A stretch of 64,000 nucleotides of DNA from Octopus vulgaris (taxonomy: Eukaryota), in assembly GCA_951406725.2 (NCBI GenBank), contig OX597814.1:55490001-55554000 (forward strand), read 5' to 3'. A program made the translations under genes and the position numbers. Below, piece by piece: positions 3,207 to 60,674 of the stretch. Positions within the stretch are counted from its first letter, which is position 1, and every line of letters begins with the position of its first letter. Below the pieces are notes generated by a model, which was not told the origin of the DNA, searched no databases, and saw only the letters and a program-made list of their open reading frames with translations.

Positions 3207-3840
3207 TATATATGAAAGAAGATTTTAAAATGCAATTTTAAAGATGTTTATTCATTTGACTGGTTTCACTTTTTTAGTGAAAGATTGTCAAAAGTAAAAT
3301 GTAAAGCTTTGTATGAGCTTTGTTGTGTTAAGTACTGGTTGTCACATAAGTATTAAAAAACAGAAATACATTCTTTGATGATAATAAGAAAATGTTAAAA
3401 ACAGTTTACGAGAAAGTATTTGAGAAAGTAATCAAAACGGGTTCAATAAAAATCATGTTCGTTTGGTAGCATATATATATACACAGGAGATATATTTAAG
3501 AATTTACAAAAAATTGTAGAAGATAACTGACTTACAGTTCTATATTTAAGAGATGAGGAATTATGAACATTATTTACATTCAACGGATATTTGTCCTCAT
3601 CTTGTTTGTTGTTAACTCAACATTTTGGCTGATATACCCTCCAGCCTTCTTATCAAAGAATGTATTATCAAAGTATGTATTTCTGTTTTTTAATACTTTT
3701 GTGATAACCAGTACTTAAAACAACAAAGCTCATACAAAGCTTTACATTTTACTGTTGACAATCTTTTTCTAAAAAAGTGAAACCAGTCAAGTGATAAACA
3801 TCTTTACAATTGCATTTTCTAACTTTCTTTCATGTATATA
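3207..3840. repeat. Foldback: ~175-bp inverted arms (3207-3383, ~3666-3840) around a spacer with a truncated hammerhead remnant
   Basis: Arms are reverse complements, e.g. tgtaaagctttgtatgagctttgttg / caacaaagctcatacaaagctttaca; spacer minus strand reads GA-A-GGCUG...CAGCC-AAAAUGUU at ~3617-3650. Confidence 0.9.
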
Positions 3841-3891
3841 TATATATATATATTATCCGAAATGTTTAGTATTAAATATCCATCATGGCTG

Positions 3892-3974
3892 ATCTTATCA
3901 ATTGGTTTCACATAAAGAATACAATGGAGTGTTAGGTAACAATCCAATTATATAACTTTACACTTATCAGAGAT
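3892..3974 (-). ncRNA. Type I hammerhead ribozyme, slightly decayed, long stem II
   Basis: AUCU-CUGAUAA-GUGUAAAG...CUUUAUGU-GAAA-C-CAAUUG-A-UA-AGAU; two G->A changes from the canonical core/stem III. Confidence 0.75.
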
Positions 3975-4280
3975 AACCAATATGGAAAGGAATATGGCGA
4001 CTGCTCTCTATTGTCAGAGGTGGATTAGCACAACAGGTCAGCTGTTGCCATGAAAAAAGTGGTGAAATGAAAAAGGCTAGGGGATTATATATATGTATAT
4101 ATAAAATAAGGGAAACACCTAGCATCAATAGCATCATAATTTTAAGATATCTATAAAACCATCAAAAGCTTGCTTATTTTAATGATTTTTGATTTATTAT
4201 TACTGTTGCTTAATATGTTTTGCTAAAATTGTTGTTTCTTTTCAGATATCATCAGTAAAAAGTAATTAAAATTCATTAAA

Positions 4281-5130
4281 ATGACAGATCCATTGGACTT
4301 TCAGAGAGGTCAAATTGTTGGTGCTCATATGGCAGGCGCTAGTGTAATGAAAACAGCTGAAATATTTGGTGTATCAAGAAGTACTGCCTTGAAAGTTATG
4401 ACAGCCTTTGAGAAAGAAGGGAAAAAAACTCCTCATTGAAACAAAAGTCCGGAAGAAAACCAAAACTTTTGGATAGGGATGGTCGGACTCTTACACAAAT
4501 TGTACAGCTTCCAAAATTACTGCAGAGCTCAAGAAGCCAGTTTCAACAAAAACTGTTTGCTGGGAACTGCACAAAATCAGATTTCATGGGAGGGCTGTAA
4601 TCAGAAAACCACTACTTTCAAAAACATAAGTTGCAAAACGCTTAGAGTTTGGTCCCTAAAGCAGTGGAAGAATTGGTCCCTAAAGCAGTGGAAGAATGTT
4701 ATTTTCTTGGATGAGTCATCCTGTACCTTATTTCCAACTACTGGCCAAGTATATGTGTGAAGACAGCCAAAAGAAGCATCTGACCCAGACTGCCTTCTTC
4801 CAACTGTTAAACATGGAGGAGGATCTGTAATGATCGGTGGGGGGGGGACTATATCTTGGAAAACCACCGTCCAATGGTTTCCCTTCATGGAAGAATTAAT
4901 AATCAAGACTGTTTAAGCATTTTATCTAATCAAATTCATCCTATGGTTGTGGAACTGTTTCCGGAGGGAAACACAATCTTTCAGGATGATAATGCACCAA
5001 TTCACACAGCAAAAGTTGTTACTGAATGGTATGAGGAACATTCTAGTGAAGTTGAACATCTTATCTGGCCACCACAGTCCCCAGATCTCAACATTATCAA
5101 ACATTTATGGTGCATTTTAGAAAACAAGTA
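4281..5130 (+). mobile_element. Decayed Tc1-family transposase with DD36E-type spacing
   Basis: MTDPLDFQRGQIVGAHMAG HTH start, VIFLDES, QDDNAPIH...WPPQSPDLNIIK; frameshifts, a stop and a 24-bp tandem duplication. Confidence 0.92.
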
Positions 5131-5199
5131 TATACAATTTTAGAGAAAGTCAGTCAGTCAGAACAGGAAGAGGGTCAATGATTGGCATAGCAGCTCATC

Positions 5200-5680
5200 A
5201 CTTTCTGTAAGGGAAAAGGAGATAACTCAAAAGGAACTGACTACAGAGGCATTGAAATGGTGGATCAAGTCAAGAAAGTATCAATAAAAGTTATAACATA
5301 ATTAATTAGGAAGAATATTAGCTTCCAAATGTAGCTTGGGTTTGTGCCAGAACAAAATATCACTGAAGGTCTCTTCCTAGTAGACAACGATAGAAATTCT
5401 TAGAAAAATAGTAAACTATTATATAACATAACATAATATAACATTTGTTGATTTGGAAAAGGCTTTTGACAGAGTACCATGTTTTGTAAGCTCATGGTTG
5501 TAAACAAAACTAGCCATAGCTGGATGAGTTGTAGCAGCAAGGTAAGAGTTAGTGATGAGTTCAGTAAGGAAGCTAAAATAGGTAAGTACCTATCAAGGCA
5601 TGGTTTTCAGCCTCCTCCTGTTTATTATATTTTTTCTGGTCATAACAGAGGAGTCTGTCCAACCCATGCAAACATACTAA
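5200..5680 (+). mobile_element. RTE-clade LINE reverse-transcriptase fragment
   Basis: LGFVPEQ, TFVDLEKAFDRVP, SKVRV motifs; ends in a (GAT)n tail. A second small piece (QEKYLVKRKPLYIAFIDLKK) lies at ~6977-7045. Confidence 0.75.
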
Positions 5681-58602: not shown

Positions 58603-58844
58603 TTACATTCTTATTTTTATGTTATAGTTTACCGCCCATATAAATGTGCATACACAATGATATGTTTGTTTTTTCCCCTTCGTCCCTCTATTATTATAAT
58701 TGTTATTTTTTCCCCTTTTAAAACTTACTTGTAAATATCCGTTTTTTCTCCCTATTGCCCCATTTGTATTCTCCTTTATTGTATCTTATTTTAATTTACA
58801 TTATTTTATTAAAACGTTTTTTGATGTCCTTACAAAAATTCCTC

Positions 58845-58942
58845 ACACTGATGAAAATGAAAATGCATAAATTTAATTATAATTACTATGGTTATAATTT
58901 TTTTCTCACATATTTGTATTGTCCTTAGAAACATGCATGTGT
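58845..58942 (+). ncRNA. Mirror hammerhead-like motif in right arm of foldback (decayed cleavage site)
   Basis: ACA-CUGAUGA...UGUAUUGUCCUUA-GAAA-C-AUGC-A-UG-UGU; inverted copy of 57781-57878. Confidence 0.55.
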
Positions 58943-59562
58943 ATTGAATCCTGTTTGTATTAAATCTAATTTTGATTCAACATCTTTTTCTCCTCCATTT
59001 TTTCTATAATTGTTTATGGTATATTTATACCTATAACGATATTTTTTCAACTACATATATATATATATATATATATATATATATATATATATATATATAT
59101 ATATATATATATATATGTATATATATATATATATATATATATATATTTGTGTGAGTTAGAGGTTGAGAAACCAACTAAAGGATAGTACCTATCCAGTATA
59201 CTGCTGGTAGTGTACCCAATTATTCATACCCAAGTGCTAGTTATTGCATGGCAATCTCGCAATTAAGTATTATATATGAGTAGGGATAAAAAGTGGTTTA
59301 TCTTTGATTTATATAGCAAATAAGAAAGTGGAGATGATATGAAATCGACAGACACCAGCTGGTAAACATTCCAGTATGTCTATTTATTCAAATGTATTGG
59401 ATGTATCCACACACTTGTATTAGTGGTACAGATTATCAAGTGGAAAAAGTTAGTAATTGCATAAACAAGGGTGTGGAAGCATATAAGCATATAAAAACAA
59501 GTGAGTAATTGAGTAAATGAATAGATTGCCACTAAAACCGAATGTGTATGCAGGTGCTAGTT

Positions 59563-59686
59563 CCTTATGGCCGTTTTTGCCAAGAGGCAATGAAATTTTC
59601 CAGGTTATCTCCATCTCTTCAGTGTTATGCAGGGATGAGCAGAAAAGGCTTGGATAATGAATGTGCCCCCTAGGCTTCTTCAGAGG
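59563..59686 (-). ncRNA. Decayed hammerhead motif, left arm of second foldback
   Basis: CCU-CUGAAGA-A-GCC...GGC-A-AAAA-C-GGCC-A-UA-AGG; GAAA has become AAAA. Confidence 0.6.
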
Positions 59687-59875
59687 GAAATCAATTAATA
59701 ATAGCTACAGTGTGTTAGTCTTTTTGAAATAAAGTAGAAAAAGAGTAAGAATAAGAACAAGCACTTGTATTCTCGTGTTTGTTCTTATTCTTTTTCTACT
59801 CTGTTTCAAAAAGACAAACACACTGTAGCTATTATTAACTGACTTTTATGTGTTAGCCCCACCAACCACTTAGAA

Positions 59876-59998
59876 CCTCTGAAGAAGCCTAGGAGCGTAT
59901 TCATTATCCAAGCCTTATCTGCTCATCCCTGCATAAAACTGAAGAGATGGAGATTACCTGGAAGATTTTGTTGCCTCTTGGCAAAAACGGCTGTAAGG
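59876..59998 (+). ncRNA. Decayed hammerhead motif, right arm of second foldback
   Basis: CCU-CUGAAGA-A-GCC...GGC-A-AAAA-C-GGCU-G-UA-AGG; the two arms together reconstruct the stem III palindrome CGGCCG. Confidence 0.6.
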
Positions 59999-60674
59999 AA
60001 GTAGTACCCGCATACCCATTCTGTTTCAGTGACAATCTGCTCATTTTCACATTTGCTCAATTACTTACTTGTTTTTATATGCTTATATGCTTCCACACCC
60101 TTGTTTATGCAATTACTAACTTTTTCCACTTGATAATCTGTACCATTAATACAAGTGTGTGGATTCATCCAATACATTTGAATAAATAGACATACTGGAA
60201 TGTTTACTAGCTGGTGTCTATCAATTTTATATCCTCTCCACTTTCATATTTACTGTATATATATATATATATATATATATATATATATATATATATATAT
60301 ATATATATGTATATATATCATCATCATCATCATCGTTTAGCGTCCGCTTTCCATGCTAGCATGGGTTGGACGGTTCAACTGGGGTCTGGGAAGACAGAAG
60401 GCTGCACCAGGCCCAATCTGATCTGGCAATGTTTCTACAGCTGGATGCCCTTCCAAATGCCAACCACTCTATGAGTGTAGGGTGCTTTTTATGTGCCACC
60501 GGCACAGGTGCCAGACGAAAACACATGCATACAGATATTTACATATACATATATATATATATATATATATATATATATATATATATATGTATGTACACCC
60601 TTATACTCATTAAAATTAATTTAAATCTGAAATTATACATTCAAATTATTTATTAATTATTATAATGTGAATAT

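Follow-up and report, generated by a model that had tools for sequence, protein, structure and literature searches.

Hammerhead motifs in the introns of an octopus KCNT2-like gene as probable 3′ ends of Penelope-like elements

Hammerhead sites in a KCNT2-like gene

We analysed a 64,000-nucleotide (nt) stretch of the 2.8-Gb genome of Octopus vulgaris (G000:C1:55490001-55554000, hereafter the window), in which ten hammerhead ribozyme motifs lie in the introns of a potassium channel gene. A sequence-only reading of the window had assigned them to such a gene, and protein matches bear this out. KCNT2-like (Slick/Slo2) octopus proteins match an exon at 33600..33836 on the minus strand at 99%, and further exons lie on the same strand at 56240-56311, 37138-37272, ~35113-35200, 18243-18356 (one isoform), and 2777-2929. 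Seven hammerhead sites are located between or beside these exons. We infer that the four sites to the right of 56311 are also intronic, because the N-terminal portion of the protein falls outside the window. Relative to the gene, five of the ten sites are in sense and five in antisense orientation. One octopus isoform contains the exon at 18243-18356 and another lacks it, and one intact hammerhead copy (copy A, below) lies in the intron upstream of it. No match to the PF00520 profile was listed in the window, Pfam scans of 72 short peptides recognised neither the host gene nor pieces of Penelope-like elements (PLEs), and a PDB search returned nothing.

All ten motifs are present at about the positions first proposed, the minus-strand numbers of that proposal being 3′ ends. 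Under a strict type I descriptor, which demands a canonical core, a palindromic stem III, and stems I and II, only two sites in the window match, at 27325 (−) and 55214 (+). In the shuffled control that had been suggested as a check, 100 block-wise dinucleotide shuffles of the window gave a mean of 0.04 matches and a maximum of 1. The other eight copies are damaged in the core, at the cleavage base, or in stem pairing. Hence ten motifs exist, as had been claimed, but as ribozymes only two of the ten are intact.

The first intact copy is the 3′ end of a family A PLE at 26973..27420 (−), with core base C3 at 27325, a 111-nt stem II region, and stem III CAUAUG; its predicted cut, after 27196, would fall in sense orientation in the KCNT2 precursor mRNA. 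The second is the 3′ end of a family B PLE at 55166..55462 (+), with C3 at 55214, a 21-nt stem II region, and stem III CAGCUG; its predicted cut, after 55253, is antisense to the host gene.

The damaged copies belong to six further families. The 3′ end of a family D (Hydra-type) PLE at 3832..4090 (−) has C3 at 3970, a G8A change, a 54-nt stem II region, and an 8-nt stem III palindrome that is damaged. A family H remnant at 3532..3656 (−) is a minimal hammerhead (~3648) without its 5′ core and with A in place of G12; a 132-nt inverted repeat, 93% complementary (3252-3383 / 3663-3794), flanks it on both sides. On the plus strand, the 3′ end of a family G (Neptune-like) PLE at 20961..21135 contains a minimal hammerhead with C3 at 21015, the family-wide U at position 6, and G12A in this copy, and a family F copy at 26775..26985 (C3 at 26845, ~61-nt stem II region) keeps its core and has decayed stems I and III. 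Family E is represented by an inverted copy at 57550..58376 (−), with C3 at 57875, a 73-nt stem II region, a preserved core, and decayed stems I and III, and by a copy at 58398..59055 (+), with C3 at 58848 and G at the cleavage position 58939. Family C is represented by an inverted copy at 59307..59700 (−) (C3 at 59683, 99-nt stem II region) and a copy at 59701..60262 (+) (C3 at 59879, 98-nt stem II region), both with G12A. In family C the long stem II encloses a second CUGAAGA, at 59939 (+) and 59622 (−) in the window, which is kept in many copies.

The stem II regions of the window sites measure 13–112 nt, close to the ~12–110 nt first noted. The shared GUA triplet holds at most sites; 21015 and ~3648 are minimal hammerheads with a GUU-type triplet, distinct from the palindrome-GUA form. 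A candidate at 20841 was dropped as a 3′ half only. With Rfam, neither the window (E≤1) nor ten loci (E≤0.5), several of them with intact copies, matched any hammerhead family, a limitation of its models for such forms. Decayed Tc1/mariner-type transposase pieces were also observed at 4440-5143, 38375-38800, 52352-52925, 56600-57400, and 60675-61037 (DDE_3 matches for two, the rest by eye).

Repeat families and their abundance in the genome

Dispersed relatives were retrieved for every site and resolve into eight repeat families: A (27325), B (55214), C (59683/59879), D (3970), E (57875/58848), F (26845), G (21015), and H (~3648). The 25–30 best-scoring copies were kept per family, so the retrieved sets lean towards the window copy. 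Intact cores were found in 12/29 copies of A, 29/30 of B, 21/29 of C, 20/30 of D, 16/23 of E, 18/25 of F, and 0/25 of G. The majority lines of A–F and the genome-wide pattern matches of H are canonical type I hammerheads. The proposal of several unrelated hammerhead families is thus upheld, with canonical sequences in seven of eight; the exception is family G, with U at position 6. Position 7 varies freely beside this U6. Copy damage is mostly CpG decay.

The stem II regions of the majority lines measure 112 nt (A), 21 nt (B), 98 nt (C), 54 nt (D), 73 nt (E), 62 nt (F), and 13 nt (G), and form a hairpin closed at the core with z values of −3.1 to −9.7 against mononucleotide shuffles. In families A, B, C, and F the stem II base is flanked by an unpaired base on each side, and families G and H are minimal hammerheads. 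In several families stem I and stem II are each broken after 3–5 bp. At least nine different stem III palindromes occur across the families. Two that had been reconstructed from the window, CCAAUUGG and CGGCCG, are the most frequent forms among the retrieved relatives (6/30 and 8/29), and families E and F suggest CGCGCG and CGUACG. In a set of 19 C-like sequences with 61% column identity, the only departure from the core is at G12 of the window copy, and three of seven basal stem II pairs are changed on both sides. Consensus covariation, proposed as a further check, is therefore seen in the basal pairs and the palindromes and fails in the distal stem II arm, which has no common fold among these 19 sequences although single arms fold well.

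We counted the pattern core-N(a,b)-GAAAC-NNNN-GUA in the whole genome, with the reversed pattern as the control. Matches numbered 10,098 (control 601) for stem II regions of 10–39 nt, 24,756 (420) for 40–64 nt, 6,508 (402) for 65–89 nt, and 4,345 (577) for 90–120 nt, and the 121–150 nt bin was near background (1,331 vs 820). The total for 10–120 nt was 45,707 against 2,000 in the control, and 78% had a stem II region of 40–120 nt. These counts exclude stem III forms of 2, 4, 7, and 8 nt. When G5 was changed in the pattern, the 90–120 nt bin fell from 4,345 to 869. Although NNNN was free, 38 of the first 50 rows had a perfect stem III palindrome (by eye), where chance predicts 1 in 16. In the 90–120 nt bin, perfect palindromes were present in 32 of the first 60 matches, and 23 of these 60 had at least three contiguous stem I pairs, of which 18 also close the stem II base. 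This bin is impure, since 8 of the same 60 belong to one unrelated repeat with a non-palindromic CAUGGG and poor stems; the counts are accordingly those of core-intact motifs and not of proven ribozymes. About one match is expected per 64 kb and the window holds two, and therefore the motifs are not enriched at KCNT2.

Family-specific patterns gave at least 8,331 matches for family G, with U6 in 98 of the first 100 (by eye), and 3,779 for family H, canonical in 98 of the first 100 (by eye). For family B, 1,110 copies have both core halves intact, against 0 in the control. Contigs of four sequencing runs cover a B copy; such contigs cannot resolve RNA ends or cleavage. About 20 further hammerhead families were chance finds in the flanks of other loci (L009, L014, L020, L032, L042, L114, L116, L145, L156, L183, L186, L224, L260, and L274), and their stem III regions of 4–10 nt are nearly all palindromic. 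The ten motifs thus represent a genome-wide stock of tens of thousands of hammerhead motifs, most of them with an unusually long arm, for which self-cutting is predicted.

Penelope-like elements as carriers and the proposed mechanism

On the 3′ side the copies end at fixed positions next to microsatellites, and their 5′ ends are ragged. A microsatellite is located within 450 nt downstream in 174 of 195 copies, compared with a background of 59%, which agrees with the suggested targeting of TA repeats; in families B and C it is often CA/TG. Each family shows two preferred classes of microsatellite distance, indicating two alternative 3′ ends, and this arrangement matches the tail signature of PLEs given in PMC11167929. 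Inverted 5′ copies occur often; both the E pair and the C pair of the window have this structure.

In seven of the eight families, longer genomic copies continue upstream into sense coding sequence for reverse transcriptase (RT) and/or a GIY-YIG endonuclease (EN). The suspected Penelope connection is thereby supported, whereas within the window a profile search, like the earlier inspection, showed no Penelope frame. The open reading frame (ORF) link is strong for D, E, and G. For family D, the RT thumb, the linker, and GIY-YIG lie upstream in sense at 11 of 30 loci and inverted at one more, and the D hammerhead lies downstream of 8 of the 12 best EN matches; an ORF antisense to the hammerhead was rejected. 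For family E, EN profile matches of 75 and 46 bits were obtained in two of four walked loci, and in one locus with an EN match the E hammerhead follows 1.3 kb further on. Family G has a 612-codon frame upstream with RT and a CCHH-type EN, which is Neptune-like (Pfam RVT_1 with only E 0.048); in the copies L343 and L344 the translations show, by eye, a CX2-5CxxC linker and CCHH cysteines in GIY-YIG. The link is weak for A (EN C-terminus in L245, 8.5 bits, and in L255), B (thumb and linker in L039, EN end in L200), C (EN end in L228, 12.4 bits), and H (PLE frame in L204 and L198). By its motifs the H frame is Poseidon-like. GIY-YIG pieces near the A copies L010 and L013 were rejected as the ORF of family A, being pieces of another family. 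The EN query gave 20,805 first-look candidates genome-wide.

In family H (L277, L278, L204, and L198), a tRNA-like stretch is located between the ORF end and the hammerhead and is followed by an (AAT)n run. It contains A- and B-box-like motifs (by eye) and is possibly an internal promoter for RNA polymerase III; ARAGORN found no tRNA gene in the family H loci.

An apparently complete arrangement, not seen for the eight window families, was observed in L269 (G000:C8:30168300-30173500), a related young element, which consists of an inverted 5′ piece, a pseudo-long terminal repeat (pLTR), a 717-aa ORF, and a second pLTR. Two same-strand hammerheads, 2.6 kb apart, flank the intact ORF. L269 has many near-identical copies; position 4 of its hammerhead is C, where older relatives have U, and the stem III is 7 nt long. 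A Pfam scan gave no assignment for the 717-aa ORF. The ORF contains DKT and CxCX5C and lacks CCHH, and among related proteins DKT is present in 117 of 121 and CxCX4-6CP in 120 of 121, and nearly all of the 121 lack CCHH. A CxCX5C linker without CCHH in the EN was found by eye in D and L269, with decayed forms in B and E; in A, C, and F the linker lay beyond the sequence reached, as did the DKT region in every window family. L269 and its related proteins thus bear the marks of the Hydra clade of PLEs, and by their CxCX5C linker and TA target the palindrome-GUA families fit the same clade.

We conclude that the motifs are real and mostly explained by a known class, PLEs. The ten sites are very probably 5′-truncated and mostly decayed pLTR 3′ ends, with seven of eight families linked to PLEs, and the hammerheads likely cut the parent RNA as a dimer. 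Under this reading, a full element would have the structure pLTR-ORF-pLTR, and its transcript would carry two same-strand hammerheads. Each would fold its own stem I and its own stem II arm, often of 40–120 nt, while the self-complementary stem III (A-C-NNNN-G-U) would pair between the two copies in an 8-bp helix to give a double hammerhead. This would cut after GUA and free the element RNA from read-through transcripts, perhaps with help from the element's protein. The RT/GIY-YIG protein would then start from either of two sites 3′ of the ribozyme and insert the element at TA/CA microsatellites; through termination ahead of completion and through inversion, short single or inverted copies would remain, and these would decay neutrally, CpG first.

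Folding calculations are consistent with such pairing. Two A copies co-fold into the double-hammerhead pairing at −77.0 kcal/mol against 2 × −34.5 kcal/mol, and the stem III duplex is worth −7 to −14 kcal/mol, compared with +2.4 kcal/mol for the monomer stem III hairpin. The long arm is likely tolerated, because constraint falls on the arm base only. The dimer model and the pLTR location have been described for minimal forms, which have low, dimer-dependent activity (PMC4209133), and protein-assisted cleavage, two RT start sites, and the PLE tail signature have been reported (PMC11167929). Cis dimers are not available in the window: copy A alone is both intact and sense and has no same-family partner there, and the inverted pairs lie on opposite strands.

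Several observations weigh against this interpretation. No ORF was reached among 25 family F loci, the ORF links of A, B, C, and H each come from one or two decayed copies (8.5–24 bits or by eye), and the clade of A, C, and F is suggested by hammerhead form only. Two B copies co-fold partly misfolded, and the monomer fold of copy B is no better than shuffles (z −0.64). Family G has at least 8,331 copies despite its fixed U6, and an Anolis element inserts in vitro without cleavage (PMC11167929), so cutting may be dispensable. Finally, a 2-bp stem III with a tetraloop permits monomer cleavage in other invertebrate hammerheads (PMC7229834).

This last point leads to the possibility that single long-arm hammerheads can cut, for which a 2-bp stem III and its tetraloop would suffice, with an internal loop near the base of the long stem II replacing loop 2 in the contact with stem I. 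The interruption of stems I and II after 3–5 bp would suit such a contact, and in corals and mussels, hammerheads whose stem III has 2 bp cut as single motifs (PMC7229834). We regard it as unlikely, since perfect palindromy over at least nine hexamers is required for intermolecular pairing only and the monomer stem III is unfavourable by the energies given above.

It is likewise unlikely that the transposon retains the fold mainly as a signal for binding protein or dimerising RNA, with cutting secondary. The U6 of family G, the C at position 4 in the youngest family encountered (L269, L275, and L100), and the cleavage-independent insertion in vitro (PMC11167929) point in this direction, whereas most families keep every core position and a non-G cleavage base, and the core-mutant pattern lost most of its matches in the 90–120 nt bin (4,345 to 869).

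Quite unlikely, in our estimate, is that the octopus Hydra-clade elements form a distinct long-arm class in which the 40–120 nt stem II is a functional module, with more than 40,000 core-intact copies that share few palindromes and cut host precursor mRNAs in trans. If this were true, stem II would be a docking site for protein or a translation signal, sense intronic copies such as that in KCNT2 could pair in trans or across families, and the stock would amount to the largest ribozyme load yet to go unrecognised in the transcriptome of an invertebrate.

The families had been proposed to be non-autonomous. We reject this for the families in general, because longer copies of seven of the eight join sense RT/GIY-YIG coding sequence and because the copies, with ragged 5′ ends, inverted 5′ pieces, and two 3′ ends, resemble truncated autonomous PLEs. 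The proposed check of linkage to Penelope ORFs accordingly succeeds strongly or weakly in every family but F. A retrozyme-like or SINE-like (short interspersed element) status of some of the families, for which F and subfamilies of A and C are the most plausible candidates, is very unlikely; such elements would borrow the protein of a PLE and spread by way of RNA that is cut by the ribozyme and possibly circular. The failure to reach an ORF in F, the divergence of upstream regions over more than 1 kb of non-coding sequence among C subfamilies, the position of the tRNA-like stretch directly 5′ of the H hammerhead, and the derivation of retrozymes from PLE pLTRs (10.64898/2026.07.22.740005) speak for it. 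Against it, no 170–400 nt head-to-tail arrays occur in the window or among the compared copies, the 5′ ends are ragged, and the H copies L204 and L198 have the PLE frame upstream of the tRNA-like stretch.

Co-option for control of KCNT2 splicing or turnover is extremely improbable: copy A is intact, sense, and intronic, but eight of ten copies are damaged, orientations are mixed, and the number of pattern matches is near the genome mean. We propose that the copies in KCNT2 introns are passengers, and for the gene itself they are probably of little consequence.

Comparison with known systems

The closest known relatives belong to the Hydra clade (Craig et al. 2021, PMC8557442 / 10.1101/2021.04.23.441226), which includes Hydra-1_Obim from Octopus bimaculoides with a short hammerhead. 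Shared features are a C-terminal GIY-YIG without CCHH, DKT (in L269 and its related proteins), the CxCX5C linker, (TA)n insertion, a sense hammerhead near the 3′ end, a self-complementary stem III of 7–8 nt, and one additional base flanking the stem II base on either side. The loci L270, L271, and L273 resemble the Hydra-1_Obim hammerhead by eye, with a short 3′ region and a short stem II. In all 27 hammerhead rows listed for the clade the stem II region is ~25 nt or less, whereas it is 54–112 nt in five of the eight window families and 40–120 nt in 78% of the genome-wide matches. The octopus families also differ in their mostly even 6-nt palindrome, in 3′ non-coding regions of 0.6–1.3 kb or more, and in being many per species instead of one.

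The suspicion that the long-stem-II form is uncharacterised in cephalopods is thus only partly sustained: a Hydra-clade PLE with a hammerhead is already published for O. bimaculoides, and the long-stem-II families lie outside that published list. In the literature searched, which did not extend to Repbase/Dfam, Lunse et al. 2017, or Arkhipova et al. 2017 (Terminons), we found no description of long-stem-II cephalopod hammerheads or of such counts; the families may already be annotated as Penelope. The apparently new points are that an octopus genome has the long-arm form as its dominant hammerhead, how many such motifs there are, and that two core changes extend through whole families. An annotation of the giant squid reported 235 hammerheads. 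Because Rfam and published descriptors miss the dominant octopus form, cephalopod ribozymes have likely been greatly undercounted.

The natural variants of this genome bear on what the hammerhead does in Penelope elements. Dozens of independent families vary in arm length (13–120 nt), palindrome, and core, including the U6 family G and the C4 family of L269, and therefore the dependence on dimers and the need for cleavage are directly testable.

The minimal hammerheads described from PLEs (Cervera and De la Pena 2014, PMC4209133) share with the octopus motifs the type I form, the pLTRs, the extra base after A9, the palindromic helix III, the dimer model, and mostly single dispersed copies, and families G and H match them directly. 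The descriptor given there allows a helix II of 3–7 bp, and the accompanying alignment contains no cephalopod. Unlike these minimal forms, families A–F often lack G10.1-C11.1 at the first position.

The animal non-LTR (long terminal repeat) retrozymes (PMC7229834; 10.64898/2026.07.22.740005) also have type I hammerheads, with a 2-bp stem III and a tetraloop, and a proposed origin from PLEs. They are head-to-tail repeats of 170–400 nt without an ORF. The octopus copies are dispersed, 5′-truncated or inverted ends of ORF-bearing elements, and not the short head-to-tail repeats with one hammerhead per unit and no ORF that characterise a non-LTR retrozyme.

A precedent for extension of stem II is given by the hammerheads of the EN-minus PLE-X1 elements of spike moss (Craig 2021 File S2), in which loop 2 is enlarged to ~30–35 nt. 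Those elements are from a plant, lack the EN, target ribosomal DNA, and comprise two families, and their arms are shorter than those of the octopus.

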